In this document: piece by piece, positions 900-10,554 of the stretch
Layout of the letters: each line of letters opens with the position of its first letter
How positions within the stretch are numbered: the stretch's first letter is position 1
From: Armatimonadota bacterium
GTDB lineage: Bacteria; Vulcanimicrobiota; JACPDS01; JBDRKI01
DNA: 10,844 nucleotides
Reading direction: 5' to 3'
Assembly: GCA_043814095.1 (NCBI GenBank)
Contig: JBDRKI010000103.1
Location: 1-10,844 of the forward strand
Notes under the pieces: model-generated
Seen by the model: only the letters and a program-made list of their open reading frames with translations
Told to the model about the DNA's origin: nothing
The model's database searches: none
Program-made: the position numbers and the translations under genes

Positions 900-933
900 G
901 TTTTTGTTTCTCCTTCCGTTATTTAAATTTTAT

Positions 934-963
934 AAAGACTCCCTGTAAACACAGGAAGTTTTT
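934..963 (-). other. Stem-loop in the 5' leader of the lipoprotein gene (or weak terminator of the upstream gene)
   Basis: Minus strand ACTTCCTGT-gttt-ACAGGGAGT (959-938) forms 9 bp with one G-U pair, extended by A-U pairs. The U-tract is only short. Confidence 0.4.
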
Positions 964-980
964 TATATTTTTAAGAGATA

Positions 981-1004
981 TTCTAGCTGGATTTTATTTT
1001 ACCT
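981..1004 (-). promoter_or_regulatory. Sigma-H-like promoter P1 (lipoprotein gene)
   Basis: gcAGG-taaaataaaatccagcta-GAAtat, 18-nt spacer. Confidence 0.65.
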
Positions 1005-1023
1005 GCATTTTAAAATTATATTT

Positions 1024-2670
1024 TTAAAATACTTTCGTAATCATTTCCGAACACCATTTTATAAAATGGGCGCTGGGCATAAATATAAGCTGGGAGACTA
1101 CTGTTCCCACAATCATGCCCACTATAAGAAAAACGGCCATAATCTCAACATGATGCTTAGGACGCTGACCCGATACCGCCTGGTCTGTTATAAGGGATGC
1201 CATGGGGTCAACTATAAGCCCCATAAGTATCGTAGCAACGCCGTTTACAACGCCGGAGAGCAGCGCCGCCTGCCTGGCAAAATCTTTGCAAAGAGCGCCC
1301 GCGTAAGTCGCCGCGAGAACCCCGATTGTATGAATGGCAATGACTATAATATTGTATATAAGGAAGTTCCTGGGTATCTGCCTTATTTCACTCAGCTTTA
1401 CTCCTAAAACAGAAGGAGTGCGCAGGCACCTTACCCATTTGCCCCAGTTATTAGGCATTAACGAAAACAGTATAACCTTGGGCAGGGAGCCGTATTTTTC
1501 CATGCCCCTTATTCCTTTATTGTAAATTTCAATAAAAGTAGGCATTAAAATAAAACCCACCGTCATGCCGAAAGTCGTGCCCAGTATAATCCATCGCAAC
1601 TGTCCTTCAAGCCGGAAAACAGTGTTTGTCTTGACGGCAAAATCCACTATAGTGCCTATTATGGGAGCATAAATCTGCTGGGCAAGCCTTGTTATTAAAA
1701 AAAACAGATTGTAAACGGCTATCGCCGTAGCGACTCTTTTTGTAACAACCGCGGACACTCTTGAAACCGCGGTAGTGGAATAAAGAACGGCAACGAGAAC
1801 GGCTAAAGACACGACAAGCGCTATGCTCCCGCCTACGCCCTGAGCCATTTTAACGGCAACAAATTCTACTACCGCAACGCCGGGCATGAAAAGAAACTGG
1901 GAGAGTATCATGCCTAAGACTGTGCCTGCAGTAAGAAAAACAGCTGTTATATAGATATGTTTCTTCGGACGTTCTCCCGCTATTACCTCGTCGGTAATAA
2001 GGGACGCTTTGGGATCAACAAGTGTGCTGAAAATTATCGCGGCGATGGAATTTACGGCGCCCGAGAGAAGCACTGTCGCAACCTTATATTCGGGGCGAAC
2101 GGCGCTGACATAAAGGGCGCATAAGACGCCAACTGTCCATATTCCCGTTCCTATAACATTCCATATAAGGAAACCGGCAGGCAGGCCTTCAAGGTTAAAT
2201 AAAGACACGCCGAAATTCGTAGGACGCTTGAAGCATTTTATAATCTTAGGTAAGTTTAGCGGATTTAAAGCCATTAGGACAACTTTTACCATTGAGCCGC
2301 TTCTTTCAAATGAGCGCACTCCCTTGCAGAAAAGCTCAACAAAGGTAGGAAGCAGTAACCACAGCGCAACCCCGCCTAAAAACGCCCCCCATATAATAAT
2401 GCGGAGTTGTATATTTAAAAGCCCTATGTTTTTGGACAAAACCGCCCTGTCCACATAAGTGGCAAGAAGAGGAATGTAAAAAAAGTTGGCAAACCGGGTA
2501 AACATAAAAAACACGTTATGAAGGGTATTTGATGTTGCGACCCTTCTTGTTATGACCGCTGCGGGACGTGAAGCGATGGTATTGGCGGTAAGAAGCGCCA
2601 CGATACCTGCCATAACCGCTATAAATATAAGTTTCGGATCTTTTAATGCAATTAAATACTGTTCAAACAT
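1024..2670 (-). CDS. amj: Amj/DUF2837-family lipid II flippase, tandem two-domain form
   Basis: Polytopic membrane protein with Amj-type motifs present twice at an offset of about 269 aa: SRPAAVITRRVAT/SRVSAVVTKRVAT, LLPTFVE/LMPTFIE, LLSGAVNSIAAIIFSTLVDPKASLITD/LLSGVVNGVATILMGLIVDPMASLITD. Confidence 0.85.
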   Translation of the reverse strand: MFEQYLIALKDPKLIFIAVMAGIVALLTANTIASRPAAVITRRVATSNTLHNVFFMFTRFANFFYIPLLATYVDRAVLSKNIGLLNIQLRIIIWGAFLGGVALWLLLPTFVELFCKGVRSFERSGSMVKVVLMALNPLNLPKIIKCFKRPTNFGVSLFNLEGLPAGFLIWNVIGTGIWTVGVLCALYVSAVRPEYKVATVLLSGAVNSIAAIIFSTLVDPKASLITDEVIAGERPKKHIYITAVFLTAGTVLGMILSQFLFMPGVAVVEFVAVKMAQGVGGSIALVVSLAVLVAVLYSTTAVSRVSAVVTKRVATAIAVYNLFFLITRLAQQIYAPIIGTIVDFAVKTNTVFRLEGQLRWIILGTTFGMTVGFILMPTFIEIYNKGIRGMEKYGSLPKVILFSLMPNNWGKWVRCLRTPSVLGVKLSEIRQIPRNFLIYNIIVIAIHTIGVLAATYAGALCKDFARQAALLSGVVNGVATILMGLIVDPMASLITDQAVSGQRPKHHVEIMAVFLIVGMIVGTVVSQLIFMPSAHFIKWCSEMITKVF

Positions 2671-2680
2671 CTGGAGTATC

Positions 2681-2704
2681 TTCTACAAGGAAAAATAAAT
2701 ACCT
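2681..2704 (-). promoter_or_regulatory. Sigma-H-like promoter P2 (amj-like gene)
   Basis: gtAGG-tatttatttttccttgta-GAAgat, 18-nt spacer, 10 nt before the ATG. Confidence 0.6.
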
Positions 2705-2713
2705 ACTTTTTCA

Positions 2714-2738
2714 AGGATTAATACAGATATGAGTAGAA
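2714..2738 (+). promoter_or_regulatory. Sigma-H-like promoter P3 (COG2426/flavin reductase operon)
   Basis: caAGG-attaatacagatatgagta-GAAata, 19-nt spacer. Confidence 0.55.
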
Positions 2739-2752
2739 ATATCTTTATTAAG

Positions 2753-2761
2753 ATTATACCA
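2753..2761 (-). promoter_or_regulatory. Possible sigma-A extended -10 element facing the amj-like gene
   Basis: Minus strand reads TGgTATAAT (perfect TGn-TATAAT); no clear -35. Confidence 0.4.
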
Positions 2762-2781
2762 TTTCAAATGGGAGTAATTTC

Positions 2782-3234
2782 ATGCCGTCTATAGCTTATC
2801 TATCAAAACTTTTATCGGTATTTGTCCTTGGAGCAATAGAGCTCTGGGCGGCCATACCCGCCGGCTTTATCATGAAGCTTGACCCCGTAACAACAGCCGT
2901 AACATCCGCTCTGGGAGCCATATCCGGTGCTTTTATAGTCTTAACCCTGGGGGAAGCTGCTAAAAAATTCTTTGAAAAATTTAAAAAGAAAAAAGAAACC
3001 GAATCCAAAGAAAGCTTTATAAAAAAGGTCTGGAATAAATACGGCGCGCCGGGGCTCGGGCTTCTTGCCCCCCTTATAACAGGCGCGCCTCTCGGCGTCA
3101 TACTCGGGGTATCGCTGGGCGCGGACCGTAAAAAACTCATCCTCTGGATAAATATAGGCGTAATTATATGGTCAGTCATACTGACCCTGGCGGTTGTGCT
3201 GGGCATAGCCGGAGCAGAGAAAATAAGGCACTAG
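2782..3234 (+). CDS. COG2426 / putative small multidrug export family membrane protein
   Basis: GAIELWAAIPAG, KYGAPGLGLLAPLITGAPLG and about four hydrophobic segments. SD GGGAG at 2770-2774. Confidence 0.8.
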   Translation: MPSIAYLSKLLSVFVLGAIELWAAIPAGFIMKLDPVTTAVTSALGAISGAFIVLTLGEAAKKFFEKFKKKKETESKESFIKKVWNKYGAPGLGLLAPLITGAPLGVILGVSLGADRKKLILWINIGVIIWSVILTLAVVLGIAGAEKIRH

Positions 3235-3250
3235 GAAGGAATGTTGACAA

Positions 3251-3772
3251 ATGAAAAAAATTAAAGACAATATCTACCATCTTCTGCATCCCAAGCTTTC
3301 CGTGCTTATAACAAGCATAGATAAAAAAGGAAGCCCAAATGTCATGTCATGCGCATGGACATCGCCCGCGAGCGAAATACCCCCTATTGAGATAATCTGT
3401 ATTGCAAAAGAAAGTTATACTGCAAAACTGATAAACGAAACTAAACAGTTTGTAATAAATATACCTTCAAAGAAACTTTTAAAAGCCGTATGGATATGCG
3501 GCTCGCATTCGGGAAAAGACACGGATAAATTCAAAAAAGCCGGACTTAAATACAAAAAAGGGAAATTTGTAAAGGCACCTGTAATTAAAGGTTCTGTTGG
3601 ATATATTGAATGCAAGCTATGGAAAACCGTCTCTGCCGGTGAATGTTATGTTTTCTTCGGAAAAGCGGTATATGCTTCGGTGGATGAAAAATATTTCAAA
3701 AAAGGCGGGTGGATAAAATCCGGGGAGCTTCCGCTTCATCTTGCAGGCGCAAAAATGGTATATGCCAAATAA
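3251..3772 (+). CDS. Flavin reductase family protein (DIM6/NtaB-like, FMN-binding split barrel)
   Basis: LLHP..VLITS..G.PNVM..AW, PP, FVINIP, CGSHSGKDTDKF, APVI...GYIECKL. SD AAGGA upstream; 16 nt after the previous stop. Confidence 0.9.
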   Translation: MKKIKDNIYHLLHPKLSVLITSIDKKGSPNVMSCAWTSPASEIPPIEIICIAKESYTAKLINETKQFVINIPSKKLLKAVWICGSHSGKDTDKFKKAGLKYKKGKFVKAPVIKGSVGYIECKLWKTVSAGECYVFFGKAVYASVDEKYFKKGGWIKSGELPLHLAGAKMVYAK

Positions 3773-3796
3773 AGGAATATTAGCGTCATGGAAGAA
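3773..3796 (+). promoter_or_regulatory. Sigma-H-like promoter P4 (TPR lipoprotein)
   Basis: aaAGG-aatattagcgtcatggaa-GAAtta, 18-nt spacer; full match to RNAGGAWWW-N11-RNNGAAT. Confidence 0.7.
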
Positions 3797-3833
3797 TTAA
3801 TGAACCGTTAGAACCCTTAAAAGGAGGGCAAAA

Positions 3834-4595
3834 ATGAAAATTTCACGCAAAATTCTTATAGTAATAGCCGTATTACTATGCGCGGCTCTGGCCGTAACAA
3901 CATTAACAAGCTGCAAAAAGAAAGATACCTCAGAGTATAATAAACTCGGGTTTGCTTATCTTAAAGAGGGTCTTATTGATGAGGCCATGGTAGAATTCCA
4001 GAAGTCTTTAAAAATCAACCCTAAAGATCTTGAAGCACGCAGCAACCTTGCCGCATGCTATATCCAGAAAGGCCAGCTTGATAAAGCCATAGACGAATAT
4101 CAAAAATGCACTAAAATAAAGCCCGAAGATGCAAATTCATATAACAACCTTGCTTTTGCTTATTATTCAAAAGGCGATACGGCAAAAGCTATCGAGACAT
4201 TCCAGAAATCCCTTGAAATTAACCCTAAATTTGCGGATTCCTATTACAACATTGGATATATTTATGATAAAACAGGAAAGCCCGATGAAGCTATAGTTGA
4301 GTACAAAAAGGGTATAGAAGCCAATCCCAATGACGCGAAAATCCACAACAGACTGGGACTTGTTTATTACAAAAAAGGCATGAAGGACGAAGCTCTCATC
4401 TGTTTCAAAAAAGCCATTGAGGTTAACCCGAATTACAATATGGGCTACTATAACCTCGCAAAATATTATTTTAACAATAAAGATTACGAGCTGGCAGTTG
4501 ACGCGTATAATAAAGCCGTTGAACTGGGATGTGAACCTAAAGAAGATTTCGCAAAAGCCATACAGCCGTATTTAGAAAAAAAGAATAATACTTAA
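3834..4595 (+). CDS. Tetratricopeptide-repeat lipoprotein
   Basis: Signal peptide with lipobox LTS-C27, then six 34-aa TPRs (e.g. ANSYNNLAFAYYSKGDTAKAIETFQKSLEINPKF). SD AAGGAGG at 3821-3827. Confidence 0.92.
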   Translation: MKISRKILIVIAVLLCAALAVTTLTSCKKKDTSEYNKLGFAYLKEGLIDEAMVEFQKSLKINPKDLEARSNLAACYIQKGQLDKAIDEYQKCTKIKPEDANSYNNLAFAYYSKGDTAKAIETFQKSLEINPKFADSYYNIGYIYDKTGKPDEAIVEYKKGIEANPNDAKIHNRLGLVYYKKGMKDEALICFKKAIEVNPNYNMGYYNLAKYYFNNKDYELAVDAYNKAVELGCEPKEDFAKAIQPYLEKKNNT

Positions 4596-4610
4596 TTTTA
4601 AGGGGAAAAT

Positions 4611-4640
4611 GGGGCCGGATATTTTTATATCCGGCCTTTA
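4611..4640 (+). terminator. Probable intrinsic terminator after the TPR gene
   Basis: Perfect 10-bp stem GGCCGGATAT (4613-4622)/ATATCCGGCC (4627-4636) with a TTTT loop, followed by TTTAATTT. Confidence 0.7.
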
Positions 4641-4647
4641 ATTTATC

Positions 4648-5331
4648 ATGAGAAAACTCTTCTTTTTTCTGCTTTTTATAATAATATTTATTTTCTCGCT
4701 TTACATATCTTTATATAATGTTCCAAAACCAAAAATCATATCTAAAATAGACATAATAAAAGAGATGACTGATCTGGAGATACCTTCCGGAAATATAGAT
4801 ACCAGCGAGATAAAAATCACTAAAAAAGACGGTAAGTATTATATAAATGACATCTGCTGTATTTCTGAAAAGGAAATGGAATATTTCATAAAATATAACT
4901 ATATTGAACTTTCCAATGATCCCGGTAATCCTACGGTAATAAGCCCTGATGAACTGCATACCATATTAAATATTTTAAAATATATGCACGCTGAAAAATA
5001 TAAAGTGCAGGGTACAATAATATCATGGAACGCGGGAGTAAACAGCGGCACATTCTCCATAAAAACAGATGACGGCAGAATAATGAACTATCTTTTCTGG
5101 TCCGGAAGCTGGGGACATCCGACCATAATAGGAAGTTATAAAGATGTTCTGAAAAACTACAGATGCTATGAGCCCGATTCATATGACTTTGCGGAAAAAA
5201 TTGAAGAAAAACCCTTCCCCGATGAAAAACTTTATTCGGGTAAAGATAAACTGGACAAAAAAATAAAGATTATTTACGTAAAGACAGATCCCGGAAGCAA
5301 GTGGAAATCCGTTGTGGCATATGAGCTTTAA
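4648..5331 (+). CDS. Hypothetical protein with N-terminal membrane anchor/signal
   Basis: 227-aa ORF filling the gap between genes; MRK plus a strongly hydrophobic stretch. No recognisable family and no SD. Confidence 0.7.
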   Translation: MRKLFFFLLFIIIFIFSLYISLYNVPKPKIISKIDIIKEMTDLEIPSGNIDTSEIKITKKDGKYYINDICCISEKEMEYFIKYNYIELSNDPGNPTVISPDELHTILNILKYMHAEKYKVQGTIISWNAGVNSGTFSIKTDDGRIMNYLFWSGSWGHPTIIGSYKDVLKNYRCYEPDSYDFAEKIEEKPFPDEKLYSGKDKLDKKIKIIYVKTDPGSKWKSVVAYEL

Positions 5332-6734
5332 GACAGTATCATAATCTTGGGTTCTGTCATCTCTTCTATGGCCCAGCGCGGGCCTTCACGCCCTAGCCCG
5401 GAATCCTTAACTCCCCCGTAAGGCATAGAATCTATCCTGAATGCCGAAACATTATTTATAATAACGCCGCCCGCGTCTATCTGGTCAAATGATTTCATTA
5501 TCAACCTTATATCATTAGTGAATACTCCGGCCTGGAGGCCGAAACGGGAGTCATTTACTTTATCCAGTGCTTTATCAAAATCATCATACCCCTCAAGCAC
5601 AATAACCGGTCCGAATACTTCTTTTGATACCACAGCGCACTTTTGGGGAACATTTTCCATAATTGTAGGTTCATAAACAGAGCCTGTAGAATTACCTCCC
5701 GATATAATCCTACCCCCTTCTTTAACGGCTTCATCAACCCAGTCTTTAACGCGTTCAAGATTGGCAGAATCAATTAAGGCGGAAATATCCGTATTTTCAT
5801 CCATAGGATCGCCTGTTTTTAACTTCTCTGTTTCACATTTAATCTTATTTTTAAATTCATCATAAATATCCGTATGTACATATATCCTCTGTACCGATAT
5901 ACAGACCTGCCCTGAATAGGAAAATCCTCCCGTAACGCATTTTTTCGCCGCATCTTCTATATCCGCGTCTTTATGCACAATAACAGCCGCGTTCCCGCCG
6001 AGTTCAAGCGCAACTTTCTTTTTGCCTGATTTTGCCTTTAAAGCCCAACCGACTGTATCGCTACCGGTAAATGTAAGCAGTTTAATCCTGTCATCCGCAA
6101 CCATCTTTTCAGCTAATTCTGATGAACATGGCAGAACGCTTATTGCTTCCCACCCGGCGCTGAGCACCGCAAATCCCAGCATTAACGCGCTTAAAGGCGT
6201 TTTTGACGCAGGTTTTATTATTACCGGATTGCCTGAGGCAATGGCAGGAGCCACTTTGTGAGCTACAAGCATCAAGGGAAAATTAAACGGGGTTATGCCT
6301 AAAACAGGGCCTATAGGGAACCTTTTTATAACCGCGGTCCTGCCTATGCCGGACGGAACTATATCAACGGGAAGAACCTCCCCCTTTATTCTTTTTGCTT
6401 CTTCGGCGGCTATCCTGAAAGTGGATACAGCTCTGTCAACTTCTATCCTTGAGAATCTAATGGGCTTACCGGCTTCCCGAGCTATAATTTCTGCAAACTC
6501 TTCTTTCTTGCTTTCCAGGTTATCCGCAGTTTTTACAAGTGCCTGAGCTCTTTCCATGGAACTCATGCGGCGTGTTTTTTCAAATAATTCTACCGATTTT
6601 GCAACCGCTTCTTCAATATCGGCTTCCTGCGCTTTGTAAGTTTCGGCAAATTCTTTCCCGTTATAAGGGTTAATAACGGGGAGTATATCATGGGATGCCT
6701 TTTTTCTGCCTGCAACTACAAATTGAAAATTCAT
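5328..6734 (-). CDS. NAD(P)-dependent aldehyde dehydrogenase
   Basis: ITPFNFP, KPASKTP, FTGS, catalytic Glu in LELGGN, catalytic Cys in GQVCIS, EVFGP, PYGGVKDSGLGREG. SD GGAGG at 6745-6741. Confidence 0.97.
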   Translation of the reverse strand: MNFQFVVAGRKKASHDILPVINPYNGKEFAETYKAQEADIEEAVAKSVELFEKTRRMSSMERAQALVKTADNLESKKEEFAEIIAREAGKPIRFSRIEVDRAVSTFRIAAEEAKRIKGEVLPVDIVPSGIGRTAVIKRFPIGPVLGITPFNFPLMLVAHKVAPAIASGNPVIIKPASKTPLSALMLGFAVLSAGWEAISVLPCSSELAEKMVADDRIKLLTFTGSDTVGWALKAKSGKKKVALELGGNAAVIVHKDADIEDAAKKCVTGGFSYSGQVCISVQRIYVHTDIYDEFKNKIKCETEKLKTGDPMDENTDISALIDSANLERVKDWVDEAVKEGGRIISGGNSTGSVYEPTIMENVPQKCAVVSKEVFGPVIVLEGYDDFDKALDKVNDSRFGLQAGVFTNDIRLIMKSFDQIDAGGVIINNVSAFRIDSMPYGGVKDSGLGREGPRWAIEEMTEPKIMILS

Positions 6735-6767
6735 ACTCTTCCTCCGGAATAAAATCTGATATATCTG

Positions 6768-7187
6768 TCAGTAATTATTATCTTTTACGGGAGCCCGCAT
6801 GCGTTTTTTTTGGGATTGTTTGTGTTTTACTTCAAGCATTTTTTCTTTAGCTCTTTTTGATCTTTTTCTTTTCTGGCGTTTTAACTTTTCAATGCGCTTT
6901 CTTTCTTCCGATTCCCTGCCCAAAGCAATCTCATTAATCTTCTTTATTAATATTTTACGGGCGTAATAACGGTTTAATGACTGCGAGCGCTCTTTCTGGC
7001 ATTTTACTTCAATGCCGGTGGGAATATGCTTAAGATACACGCAGCTTGAGGATTTATTGACTTTCTGTCCGCCCGGACCGGAAGATTTTATGAATTTTTC
7101 AATTATATCTTCCTCTTTTATCCCGAGGGAGGACATCTTCTCTATTATAGCTTTTTCTTTTTCATGACTTATGCCGAAATCATACAT
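6768..7187 (-). CDS. Stand-alone GGQ peptidyl-tRNA hydrolase domain protein (release-factor-like ribosome rescue factor, C12orf65/ArfB class)
   Basis: [11 protein letters not shown] (GGQ at aa 39-41), [22 protein letters not shown] and a long Lys/Arg-rich tail. It has no codon-recognition domain (139 aa). Confidence 0.92.
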
Positions 7188-7202
7188 TACTTTTGATATC
7201 CT

Positions 7203-8228
7203 TTACGGTTTTTCTTTTGCCGGACGCCTTCTTTCAAGTATTTCGGAAGACGTGCCGCTCTTTTTATGATGCGATACCCATAGAACCCTTACGGCAACAG
7301 ATACGTTCCTGCCGGTTTCGTCTTCAAGGGTTTTCCGCAGTTTATCCATATAATCCGCTCCGGGCTCTTCCGGGGAATATACCGACAGCTCCACATTGAT
7401 GTCTTTTTTGTTCTGCGTCCATTTAATATCCGCAAGCCGCGCCTCCGGATCCAGCGCGGGTACGGCTTCACTGGCAATCCTTGTTATCTTTTCGTTTAAT
7501 ATAGAATGGTTAATCGTCTGGTACATAATAAAGCTCAACGGCACCGCCAGTATAAGGACTATAATAACCGAGACCGCGGCCTTCCAGTAAAACCCCTTTG
7601 ATGGGCTTCCTTTTATCTTTCCGAATCCTTCCAGATAAAATACCACAATGCCGGCAAGATGGATGCCGGCAAGGTTTGACGCTCCCAGTATAAACGCGCC
7701 GTAAGCTATGTCAAACCTGTTTAAGGCCAGCCCGATGCCCGATGCGGCAAGAGGAGGCAGAACCGAAACCGCTATGGCAACTCCAGCTATGCTGGTCAGC
7801 CAGCTTCTCTTAGACATGGCAAAAGCGCCGGCCGCGCCCGCGGCCATCCCTATAATAAGATCATAAAGCGTGGGTTTAATCCTCGCCATAATCTCCGCCG
7901 TTACGGGAACATGGGGCATCAGCTTCACCATGAAAAACGATATTAGGTAAACAACCGCGATCCCCTTGAAGAGCTCCCTTAATGACCTGTATATAAGGGA
8001 CATATCGCTCTTAACAATGCCTATGGAGGCGGACATAACAGGTATTGTTATGGGAGCTATCACCATAGAACCTATAATGACTGCGGCGCTGTTAATAATA
8101 AGACCCAGTGTCGCGATAATCGCCGATAAAGTCGTAAATAAATAATATTCCTTAAGATCAATTTCCAGCATTTGTTTTAAATACAGCGATTTTTCGGTTT
8201 TTCTGAAAAAGTTTTTCAAAAATTTCAT
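7203..8228 (-). CDS. DUF389 / TIGR00341 family membrane protein
   Basis: LSAIIATLGLIINSAAVIIGSMVIAP, EIMARIKPTLYDL, GVAIAVSVLPPL, plus a soluble C-terminal domain. Confidence 0.9.
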   Translation of the reverse strand: MKFLKNFFRKTEKSLYLKQMLEIDLKEYYLFTTLSAIIATLGLIINSAAVIIGSMVIAPITIPVMSASIGIVKSDMSLIYRSLRELFKGIAVVYLISFFMVKLMPHVPVTAEIMARIKPTLYDLIIGMAAGAAGAFAMSKRSWLTSIAGVAIAVSVLPPLAASGIGLALNRFDIAYGAFILGASNLAGIHLAGIVVFYLEGFGKIKGSPSKGFYWKAAVSVIIVLILAVPLSFIMYQTINHSILNEKITRIASEAVPALDPEARLADIKWTQNKKDINVELSVYSPEEPGADYMDKLRKTLEDETGRNVSVAVRVLWVSHHKKSGTSSEILERRRPAKEKP

Positions 8229-8240
8229 TGTAATTTACAA

Positions 8241-8264
8241 TTCTATATATACATTTATTGTCCT
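8241..8264 (-). promoter_or_regulatory. Sigma-H-like promoter P5 (DUF389-GGQ-ALDH operon), overlapping a sigma-A-like promoter
   Basis: acAGG-acaataaatgtatatata-GAAttg, 18-nt spacer. The same DNA also reads TTGACA(8269-8264)-N18-TAGAAT(8245-8240). Confidence 0.7.
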
Positions 8265-8289
8265 GTCAAACAACATTAAACTCCTTCGG

Positions 8290-8313
8290 AGGAAGATTTT
8301 ATTAATTAAAGAA
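8290..8313 (+). promoter_or_regulatory. Sigma-H-like promoter P6 (secreted hypothetical)
   Basis: ggAGG-aagattttattaattaaa-GAAaac, 18-nt spacer. Confidence 0.55.
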
Positions 8314-8334
8314 AACATTTATTGAGGTGACATT

Positions 8335-9075
8335 ATGAAAAAAAAATACCTGTACATTACCGTAACTTTATTAATTGCTTTATTCGCTTTTTCTTCGTTA
8401 AGCGTATTGGCGCAGAATAAACCAAAAGAACTTGAGGCATCGGACACCCCGCATAAAATTACCATACAGGAAATTTCAGACCAGGATATATTAAAAGATT
8501 TTTTCTCCGGATCCGGGTCCGGGCTGGATTTTATCCTGAAAATGCTTTTAGAATCAAAAGCCTCGCATCTGGGAGACAAAATAAATAAGGCAAGAAAATA
8601 TAAAGATGCGGACGGTTTAATAAGCTCCTATAAAACTTTATACTGGCTGGAAAAAACAACCGGCAAAAAAAGCACATCCGTCACATCGGAAGAGCTTTTG
8701 TACGAAATATCCGTCATATCAGAAGAGCAGTCTAACCCGGATATCTTGAGAAAAGTAGCTCGTCTGTGGGGCGATCCTCCTTTTGGGAACATCTCCCAGC
8801 AAACAAAATACCTTAATCTGGCAAAAGAAGCAGAGAAAGCAGACCCGGCAAAAACCTGCTATATTCAGATTTTCAACAAAACTTCAAACTACAATATACT
8901 GCTTTACCTGAATTCAACATATATAGAAAAACTTGCTCCGGGAAGCGCTGTTACAAAAAAAGTTCCCGCGGGGAAGCTAAAACTGCTCGCGCAGGATGAA
9001 CAAGGATATGAATGGGGTCCGAGAAATTTGAATTTAAATAATGGCGAGACATTCCTCTGGAAATTATATGAATAA
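8335..9075 (+). CDS. Secreted hypothetical protein
   Basis: MKKK, hydrophobic stretch and VLA-Q signal peptidase I site. The middle looks helical and the last about 70 aa look beta-rich. SD GAGGTG at 8324-8329. Confidence 0.8.
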   Translation: MKKKYLYITVTLLIALFAFSSLSVLAQNKPKELEASDTPHKITIQEISDQDILKDFFSGSGSGLDFILKMLLESKASHLGDKINKARKYKDADGLISSYKTLYWLEKTTGKKSTSVTSEELLYEISVISEEQSNPDILRKVARLWGDPPFGNISQQTKYLNLAKEAEKADPAKTCYIQIFNKTSNYNILLYLNSTYIEKLAPGSAVTKKVPAGKLKLLAQDEQGYEWGPRNLNLNNGETFLWKLYE

Positions 9076-9079
9076 CATT

Positions 9080-10438
9080 TTATGTGTTGATATATAACTC
9101 AAAATGATCATAAGGCAGTGTAAAATATACCGTTGTGCCGGTGCCGGGCTTTGATTCCATCCAGATATGTCCGCCGTGAAGCTCTACCAGTTTTTTGCAT
9201 ATGGCAAGCCCGATACCCATCCCGGGATACTCCCGGTCTTCATGCAGACGCTGGAAGATGGTAAAAGCAAGCTCTGCATGATCCTGTTGAAATCCTATGC
9301 CGTTGTCCTTAACAGAAAATAACCAGCCGTCATCTTCTTTTTCTGCTTTTACCGTAATTTCGGGAGAATTCTCTCCCTGAAATTTAATTGAATTGCTTAT
9401 AATGTTCTGGAGTATCTGCATAAGATGAAGTTCATTGCCTAAAACCTCTGGCAGATCTTTATATAATACTTTTGCTTTGTGTTCCTGTATCGGGAGGTCC
9501 AGATTTAAAAGCACGGTTTCCATGACATTGTTCATGTTTACTTCTTTAAAAGACTCTTTACCCTTGCCTGTCTTGGAATACGCGAGCAGTCCCTTAATAA
9601 GATTCTGCAGGCGCGAAGCTCCCGTAAGGGCGCGCTCAATATGCGGTTCTACCTCTTTCACCGTTTTATTCGAGCATTCGTCAATCAAAAACTTAAGATA
9701 ACTTATAACCGCCAGAAGAGGCTGCTGGAGATCGTGTGAAACCACATAAGCGAACCGTTCAAGCTCCTCATTGGAATGCTTTAAATCTTTCTCCGCGAGA
9801 CGCCTTATGACTATCTCTTTTTCAAGATTTTCATTTATCTCTTCCAGGCTCGCGTTCATTTTAACAAGCTCTTCCTGGGCTCTTACCAGTTCAAGATTTT
9901 TCTTTACGGCTTCTTCGTACGTGGAAAGAAGAAAATCCAGTATCTGGTGAGGCTTTGAGGCTACAAAATATTTCTGACCGCCGAAAAAAACTTCTACCGT
10001 TTCTTTTGGTTTCTTAATATCTCCTGATGGCAGGTTTCTGAGAATATGGTTAATTCTGGTTAAAAGATACTCTGGCTCATACGGTTTTATGATAAAATTA
10101 TCAGCCCCCGCTTCAAGACCTTTTATAACATCATTAATCCCGGAAAGGGATGTTAAAAGTATAACGGGTATGGATCTTAACTCATCGTTATTCTTAATAT
10201 GACTGCAAAGCTCATATCCGTCCATCTGCGGCATTACAATATCGCTTATAACCAGCTGCGGTTTCTGTTTTTTCAAAAATTCAAGCGCTTCGGCCCCGTT
10301 ATGCGCAACATCCGCTTTAAAACCGTTCTCCACAAGTATGTCTTTTAAAACCTGGGCCTGAGTAAGGCTGTCTTCCACTATCAGAATATTTACTTTATCA
10401 TTTATGCCGTTTTGCCCCATAAAAGCCTCGTTATCCAT
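9080..10438 (-). CDS. Cytoplasmic hybrid response regulator-histidine kinase (REC-coiled coil-HisKA-HATPase)
   Basis: REC (ILIVEDS, ISDIVMPQMDG, LLTS, IIKP), H-box SHDLQQPL, N-box QNIISNSIKF, G1 DNGIG, G2 GMGIGLAICKKLVELHGG. No TM segments. Confidence 0.96.
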   Translation of the reverse strand: MDNEAFMGQNGINDKVNILIVEDSLTQAQVLKDILVENGFKADVAHNGAEALEFLKKQKPQLVISDIVMPQMDGYELCSHIKNNDELRSIPVILLTSLSGINDVIKGLEAGADNFIIKPYEPEYLLTRINHILRNLPSGDIKKPKETVEVFFGGQKYFVASKPHQILDFLLSTYEEAVKKNLELVRAQEELVKMNASLEEINENLEKEIVIRRLAEKDLKHSNEELERFAYVVSHDLQQPLLAVISYLKFLIDECSNKTVKEVEPHIERALTGASRLQNLIKGLLAYSKTGKGKESFKEVNMNNVMETVLLNLDLPIQEHKAKVLYKDLPEVLGNELHLMQILQNIISNSIKFQGENSPEITVKAEKEDDGWLFSVKDNGIGFQQDHAELAFTIFQRLHEDREYPGMGIGLAICKKLVELHGGHIWMESKPGTGTTVYFTLPYDHFELYINT

Positions 10439-10466
10439 ATATTATATCTGCTATCCACGTATAAAG

Positions 10467-10490
10467 TTCTTTTTATATTAAACAATTCCT
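10467..10490 (-). promoter_or_regulatory. Sigma-H-like promoter P7 (hybrid kinase)
   Basis: ggAGG-aattgtttaatataaaaa-GAActt, 18-nt spacer. Confidence 0.65.
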
Positions 10491-10530
10491 CCGCAAAAAT
10501 AATTAAAATCTTATGCTTTTATTCTTTCAA

Positions 10531-10554
10531 AGGAAATTAATGTTTTTTACAGAA
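10531..10554 (+). promoter_or_regulatory. Sigma-H-like promoter P8 (CARDB-like gene)
   Basis: aaAGG-aaattaatgttttttaca-GAAata, 18-nt spacer. Confidence 0.65.

Follow-up and report, generated by a model that had tools for sequence, protein, structure and literature searches.

Across the contig JBDRKI010000103.1 of an Armatimonadota bacterium (assembly GCA_043814095.1), analysed here over its whole 10,844 nt (41% G+C; hereafter the window), a single two-block DNA motif, AGG and GAA separated by 18 nt and once by 19, precedes eight of the eight to nine transcription units. The motif is not a chance pattern: it is real, specific for both strand and spacing, and placed as a promoter would be. In its blocks and in the distance between them it resembles the promoters of the sigma-H factor of Bacillota. 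That the eight sites are two-block core promoters of the sigma-70 family, and represent the default promoter class of the organism, is in our judgement an evenly balanced proposition; it is put forward because the motif heads eight of the eight to nine units, whose cytoplasmic and envelope functions are unrelated, and because no canonical promoter stands out as a competitor.

An earlier sequence-only reading of this DNA had listed eight intergenic copies, seven with 18 nt and one with 19 nt between AGG and GAA and all with AGAA in the downstream block, and every one of them was recovered exactly as given (Table 1). Its count of eight motif-headed units out of nine also agrees with the gene map, the exception being the open reading frame (ORF) at 4648-5331. 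All eight sites aim at the adjacent gene, with 10 to 81 nt between GAA and ATG. In both unidirectional intergenic regions the site lies on the sense strand of the downstream gene; the orientation of site 4 is informative because its region is unidirectional. Each of the three divergent regions contains exactly two sites, standing back-to-back and each beside its own gene, and the gap between the paired copies varies (9, 25, and 40 nt). The opposite-strand reading, TTCT-N18-CCT, was also considered as the functional orientation and was rejected, as both unidirectional regions would then have the motif directed away from their downstream gene.

Invariant across the eight sites are the A-G-G of the upstream block, a T located 8 nt before the G of GAA, and the A-G-A-A of the downstream block. 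AGG is followed by A in six sites and then by A or T at most of the next three positions; a purine occupies the position two bases before AGG in seven sites and the position three bases before GAA in seven, and the spacer between the blocks is AT-rich. The base after GAA is T in three sites, A in three, G in one, and C in one. Summed over the conserved columns, the relative entropy amounts to about 18 bits. In three of the four plus-strand sites, TTC is found 4-5 nt 5' of AGG (TTCAAGG, TTCGGAGG, and TTCAAAGG, at 2710-2716, 8285-8292, and 10526-10533, respectively), and TTC-N23-GAA emerged as an enriched pair from those sites; this TTC may extend the -35 block or be coincidental.

Searched over the whole window on both strands, the bare AGG-N18-GAA pattern is not above chance, with nine matches against a shuffle mean of 5.8 and 25 of 200 shuffles reaching nine. 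Seven of the nine matches fall in the 948 nt (9%) of intergenic DNA (Fisher test of intergenic versus coding DNA: odds ratio 37, P = 1.2e-6), and spacings of 14-17 and 20-23 nt give 0-2 intergenic matches each. The sequence-only reading had proposed a comparison with shuffled controls, and within the window its outcome supports a spacing-specific motif: the observed eight was not reached once in 20,000 dinucleotide-shuffled versions of the intergenic DNA (N18-19, both strands; mean 0.89, maximum 7). An unbiased enumeration of all trimer-N(8-25)-trimer pairs (73,728) in the nine upstream regions, oriented toward their genes and totalling 979 nt, placed AGG-18-GAA at rank 1, with seven occurrences where 0.12 were expected (Poisson P = 7.7e-11; about 6e-6 after Bonferroni correction for the 73,728 pair tests). 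The next-ranked pairs were a one-base shift of AGG-18-GAA and its reverse complement, the latter ranking high because divergent regions were counted in both orientations.

As controls we used 80 unrelated loci (1.27 Mb), namely the matches listed from a search with the aldehyde dehydrogenase (ALDH) protein of the window, which come from many phyla at 38-53% identity; none of these 80 listed matches has neighbouring genes in common with the window. Fifty-five loci were analysable, the other 25 being too short or having fewer than five upstream regions. AGG-18-GAA was found 0-2 times in the upstream regions of each of the 55 (none in 43, maximum 2), and the window itself scored 6 under the automatic gene calls of the same pipeline. 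The trimer-pair enumeration gave no clear TTG/TAT-type pair in the control loci, which says nothing on the promoters of those organisms because the enumeration detects only very strict motifs. The refined pattern AGG-N10-T-N6-AGAA, derived post hoc from the same sites and hence descriptive rather than an independent test, has seven matches in the window, all of them listed sites, against 0.40 expected, and none of 200 shuffles reached seven. Site 3, with its N19 spacing, fits a one-base-longer form of this pattern, and the two intragenic N18 matches lack the extra conserved bases and fail it. In the 80 control loci it occurs 17 times per 1.27 Mb, about 50-fold more rarely per base than in the window.

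Table 1. Motif sites and genes of the window, with the genes that each site faces.
Feature	Position	Strand	AGG to GAA	Target and remarks
Site 1, AGGTAAAATAAAATCCAGCTAGAA	981..1004	-	N18	SnoaL-domain lipoprotein gene 899-273; GAA-to-ATG 81 nt; hairpin in predicted leader
Site 2, AGGTATTTATTTTTCCTTGTAGAA	2681..2704	-	N18	double-Amj gene 2670-1024; GAA-to-ATG 10 nt; without Shine-Dalgarno
Site 3, AGGATTAATACAGATATGAGTAGAA	2714..2738	+	N19 (sole)	operon 2782-3772 (small membrane protein and flavin reductase); back-to-back with site 2
Site 4, AGGAATATTAGCGTCATGGAAGAA	3773..3796	+	N18	TPR lipoprotein gene 3834-4595, possibly also 4648-5331; unidirectional region
Site 5, AGGACAATAAATGTATATATAGAA	8241..8264	-	N18	operon 8228-5328 (DUF389, ArfB-like, ALDH); GAA-to-ATG 12 nt; without Shine-Dalgarno
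Site 6, AGGAAGATTTTATTAATTAAAGAA	8290..8313	+	N18	secreted hypothetical protein gene 8335-9075; back-to-back with site 5
Site 7, AGGAATTGTTTAATATAAAAAGAA	10467..10490	-	N18	response-regulator/histidine-kinase hybrid gene 10438-9080
Site 8, AGGAAATTAATGTTTTTTACAGAA	10531..10554	+	N18	secreted hypothetical protein gene starting 10593; back-to-back with site 7
SnoaL-domain lipoprotein	273-899	-
Double-Amj ("alternate to MurJ") protein, 548 aa	1024-2670	-
Small membrane protein (Sm_multidrug_ex/VTT)	2782-3234	+
Flavin reductase	3251-3772	+
TPR lipoprotein	3834-4595	+
Membrane-anchored hypothetical protein	4648-5331	+
Operon of DUF389, ArfB-like RF-1 domain protein, and ALDH	8228-5328	-
Secreted hypothetical protein	8335-9075	+
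Receiver/histidine-kinase hybrid	9080-10438	-
Secreted hypothetical protein	10593 onward	+

The sigma-H consensus, RNAGGAWWW / RNNGAATWW, is quoted second-hand in the available text of PMC8510167, and the sigma-H boxes of Sporomusa are given as AGGA, 17-18 nt, GAAT in the available text of PMC12456013. An AGGA-17/18-GAAT arrangement equals the AGG-N18/19-GAA geometry of the sites; thus, the earlier claim that the motif shares the spacing of sigma-H promoters holds against published boxes, and the likeness extends to the flanking purines. The upstream block agrees with RNAGGAWWW (AGG in 8/8, AGGA in 6/8, then an A/T-rich stretch), and the seven N18 sites and the one N19 site correspond to the published 11-12 nt between the long boxes. 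The downstream block agrees with RNNGAATWW in part: it has GAA (8/8) and the purine three bases earlier (7/8), but the T that follows is present in 3/8 only; both flanking R positions are purines in seven of the eight sites each. In contrast, two invariant bases lie outside the quoted consensus, namely the A directly before GAA and the T at -8 from its G. Furthermore, sigma-H is an alternative factor in Bacillota, whereas the motif here precedes eight of the eight to nine units, and the named relatives of the window proteins are not Bacillota.

With canonical sigma-70/sigma-A promoters (TTGACA-17-TATAAT), the sites share two blocks about two helical turns apart, AT-rich upstream DNA and, when the downstream block is aligned as NAGAAN, an A at position 2 in all eight; site 5 alone also fits TTGACA-18-TAGAAT, at 11 of 12 positions. 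The -35 box fits poorly, however: TTGACA, sought 16-18 nt upstream, is matched at 6/6 positions in one site and at 1, 2, 2, 2, 3, 3, and 4 of 6 in the other seven. The -10 block agrees in part, at 3-5/6 positions overall, with an invariant G at position 3 and a T at position 6 in only 3/8. TTG would be expected about 4 nt upstream of where the conserved AGG stands. An interpretation of the downstream block as an ordinary TATAAT variant accompanied by a chance AGG was rejected, since all eight sites have AGG and conservation is lacking at the canonical -35 position. A consensus scan of the window returned 40 sigma-70-like matches (shuffles 25.3 +/- 6.6), of which five aim at the adjacent gene and overlap, in part or in full, an upstream intergenic region, so canonical sites are no more frequent upstream of genes than inside them. 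The sequence-only reading had counted two sigma-A-like sites; this was roughly right as to their scarcity, but the number rises to five, the best of which is site 5 (8264-8241) itself.

Two further promoter types bear on the comparison. The primary sigma factor of Bacteroidota (sigma-A Bfr) reads -33 TTTG / -7 TAnnTTTG promoters, which provides a precedent for a lineage whose default promoter is unlike TTGACA/TATAAT and varies little among its genes. These promoters have nothing in common with our sites in sequence or spacing, however, and in Bacteroidota the sigma factor is known and tested. The extracytoplasmic function (ECF) sigma factors use GGAAC/T-type -35 and short GTC/CGT-type -10 boxes, usually in a GGAAC-N16-17 geometry. 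Our sites resemble these promoters in having G-G-A-A at the core of the -35 block, in being very highly conserved, and in their envelope-gene targets, but the distance between the blocks is 4-5 nt shorter and AGAA is unlike CGTC or GTC.

The position of the sites relative to the start codons is compatible with transcription starting close to GAA. A clear Shine-Dalgarno sequence lies inside the predicted leader of five of the eight downstream genes. The two shortest GAA-to-ATG gaps, those of the Amj and DUF389 genes, contain none, as would suit mRNAs that begin a few bases past GAA with no leader or almost none. For Amj, all five close homologues (69-74% identity) in an alignment of 13 begin at the same residue, which supports the assigned start codon. 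The ORF at 4648-5331, the sole unit without an AGG-N18-GAA site, also lacks a Shine-Dalgarno sequence. A 12-bp G+C-rich hairpin after the TPR gene (4611-4647) ends 9 nt before its ATG. This ORF may be co-transcribed with the TPR gene through the hairpin, which would bring the motif to 8/8 units, or it may be expressed in an unrecognised way.

Between site 1 and the ATG at 899, the predicted leader of the SnoaL-domain lipoprotein gene contains a stable hairpin, CUUCCUGUG-UUUA-CAGGGAG (930-958, minus strand). For the 79-nt leader the folding energy is -13.8 kcal/mol (z = -3.07), a value that none of 200 shuffles attains. Read on the plus strand, this hairpin is scored as a terminator followed by a T-run. 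Its role could be to terminate transcription of the upstream Amj gene, to stabilise the leader, or to act as an attenuator. The receiver/histidine-kinase hybrid gene has no Shine-Dalgarno sequence, but in the region 10439-10466 a perfect TATAAT stands 3 nt 5' of the ATG at 10438, which is followed six codons later by another ATG in frame; both the true start codon of the gene and its transcription start are uncertain.

From these sites we infer promoter function, the position of the transcription starts, genome-wide dominance, and the identity of the sigma factor. The proposed signal would consist of an upstream block AGGA(A) and a downstream block T-N6-AGAA(W), 18 nt apart (once 19) from AGG to GAA. 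Both would be recognised by RNA polymerase with a single sigma factor, whose region 4 would contact AGGA and whose region 2 would contact AGAA; transcription would begin a few bases 3' of GAA. Five genes would then have normal leaders with a Shine-Dalgarno sequence, and the two genes lacking one would have leaders of about 0-5 nt.

As to the factor that would read these blocks, analogy makes a diverged primary (group 1) sigma with changed specificity the more likely candidate, and a Spo0H-type sigma-H promoted to general use the less likely one. Despite the sigma-H geometry, the former is favoured because altered specificity of a primary sigma has a precedent in Bacteroidota, whereas we know of no case in which a sigma-H-type factor has replaced the primary sigma. 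The gene map of the window contains no sigma factor gene. None of the named best matches of the window proteins belongs to Bacillota; given the known distribution of the Spo0H family, an orthologue is therefore not expected in this organism.

The protein relatives suggest where the lineage belongs. Beyond the closest double-Amj matches, at 69-74% identity, the named relatives (42-56% identity) are Candidatus Eremiobacterota/Vulcanimicrobiota/Xenobia (seven matches), 'Armatimonadetes' (two), and 'bacterium' (one). The fused double-Amj form makes up a family of about 100 clusters in which both halves are well conserved in alignment, and all its named members are Eremiobacterota/Vulcanimicrobiota/Xenobia, 'Armatimonadetes', or unclassified metagenome-assembled genomes (MAGs). 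The nearest Atlas cluster of the hypothetical protein at 8335-9075 (score 0.94) is commonest in Vulcanimicrobiota. The named ArfB matches, at 66-73%, are Omnitrophota, Syntrophorhabdaceae, and Auribacterota, but the protein is so conserved across phyla that it does not settle the lineage. A search with DUF389 found nothing closer than 41%, and the Atlas search with the same protein returned generic clusters only; neither DUF389 nor ALDH is informative about the lineage. One related contig of 10,977 nt encodes both Amj (74% identity) and ArfB (70%). Tentatively, the organism is placed as an uncultured, low-GC member of Eremiobacterota or a neighbour of that phylum.

The one cultured member of the Eremiobacterota phylum is described in PMC9758169 as Gram-negative and non-spore-forming. 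In the ProFinder preprint, 75.5% of the 155 Eremiobacterota genomes searched for canonical sigma-70 promoters are reported to have yielded incomplete lists, and only one phylum did worse; this weak hint is compatible with a non-canonical default promoter, but high G+C may also explain it. Our literature search returned no description of AGGA/GAAT-type promoters as the dominant class in any organism, and no study of Eremiobacterota promoters. We tentatively suggest, with somewhat less than even confidence, that an uncultured lineage, probably within or beside Eremiobacterota/Vulcanimicrobiota, rewrote its default promoter to AGGA-N17/18-(A)GAA, a geometry otherwise known only from the sporulation-transition sigma-H of Bacillota, either because its primary sigma gained sigma-H-like recognition or because a sigma-H-like factor took over.

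Several points weigh against taking the sites for the default promoters of the organism. The basis is 10.8 kb and eight sites only. The gene map of the window includes no ribosomal-protein, rRNA, or tRNA operon, so in a window lacking any classical housekeeping operon the term "default promoter", like the "near-housekeeping" role that the sequence-only reading had proposed, is an extrapolation. The T of the sigma-H GAAT is present in three of the eight sites only. If the hairpin at 930-958 were a terminator on the minus strand, it would block the promoter at site 1. The lineage markers disagree, the double-Amj and hypothetical proteins pointing to Eremiobacterota/Vulcanimicrobiota and ArfB to Omnitrophota, Syntrophorhabdaceae, and Auribacterota. 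Seven of the eight first genes encode envelope products (lipoproteins and signal-peptide proteins, two of each, and three membrane proteins, one of them the lipid II flippase homologue Amj), as expected of an envelope-stress alternative-sigma regulon. Finally, invariance at seven to eight positions in all eight sites is more typical of an alternative sigma factor than of housekeeping promoters.

The last two of these points also speak for the main rival explanation, in which an alternative sigma factor, sigma-H-like or ECF-like, uses the sites as its promoters, the contig happens to be a regulon cluster, that is, an island of envelope functions, and canonical housekeeping promoters are located elsewhere in the genome. 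In Bacillus subtilis, amj is a member of an envelope-stress sigma regulon. A broad alternative regulon also has a parallel in Sporomusa, where, in the available text of PMC12456013, sigma-H-type motifs account for 16.1% of the assigned motifs against 69.8% for SigA and cover non-sporulation functions as well. Even at this Sporomusa share of 16%, however, the probability that eight of eight to nine adjacent units belong to one regulon is about 3e-6. Next to the envelope proteins, moreover, the site-headed operons encode the cytoplasmic enzymes flavin reductase and ALDH, the kinase, and the ribosome-rescue factor ArfB, and no convincing canonical promoter offers itself as an alternative for these genes. 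An ECF version has, in addition, the shortened distance between the blocks against it. Overall, we regard an alternative-sigma island as unlikely, although it is the strongest competitor of the default-promoter interpretation.

We consider it considerably less probable that the motif is an intergenic binding site of a DNA-binding regulator or nucleoid protein and not a promoter at all. Its high conservation and its paired occurrence in divergent regions would suit such a site, but the motif is asymmetric and always faces the adjacent gene, and the varying gap between paired copies leaves no fixed dyad. Two blocks at a fixed 18-nt distance with an AT-rich spacer are promoter-like, and a position near start codons that have no Shine-Dalgarno sequence fits transcription starts. 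That the motif is a chance pattern picked by eye from AT-rich intergenic DNA, as the unremarkable whole-window count of the bare pattern might suggest, is effectively refuted by its first rank among the trimer pairs, the intergenic shuffles, the few matches at other spacings, and the control loci.

Some features of the window lie outside the motif. The convergent genes 4648-5331 (plus strand) and 5328-6734 (minus strand) overlap by 4 nt in their stop codons (5328-5331), and there is therefore no room for terminators between them. At the left edge (1-66), the window contains the final 20 codons of a TnpB/Cas12f-like gene (FCGIELDRDLNAAINILRFG), which match the end of the Pfam family Cas12f1-like_TNB with E = 7.5e-5, below the curated cut-off. 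The G+C-rich non-coding stretch that extends from there to about position 240 could contain a guide (omega) RNA and the right end of a TnpB element. An Rfam search of the window at permissive E-values gave no credible RNA family, including after the TnpB-like gene, as all eight matches scored far below their gathering scores.

If the sites are an alternative-sigma regulon, the window would be an unusually dense envelope island, with a sigma-H-like recognition code outside Bacillota. If they are instead the default promoters of the organism, its signal for starting transcription differs from the usual one of most bacteria. Its lineage would then be the second known large bacterial group, after Bacteroidota, to have abandoned TTGACA/TATAAT, and promoter recognition by the main RNA polymerase holoenzyme would be less universal than assumed. 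Canonical promoter predictors and expression vectors would fail in that group. AGG-N10-T-N6-AGAA would provide a high-information rule for annotating transcription units and leaderless genes in the MAGs of a phylum with almost no genetics, and it would point to a sigma factor with informative substitutions in regions 2 and 4.

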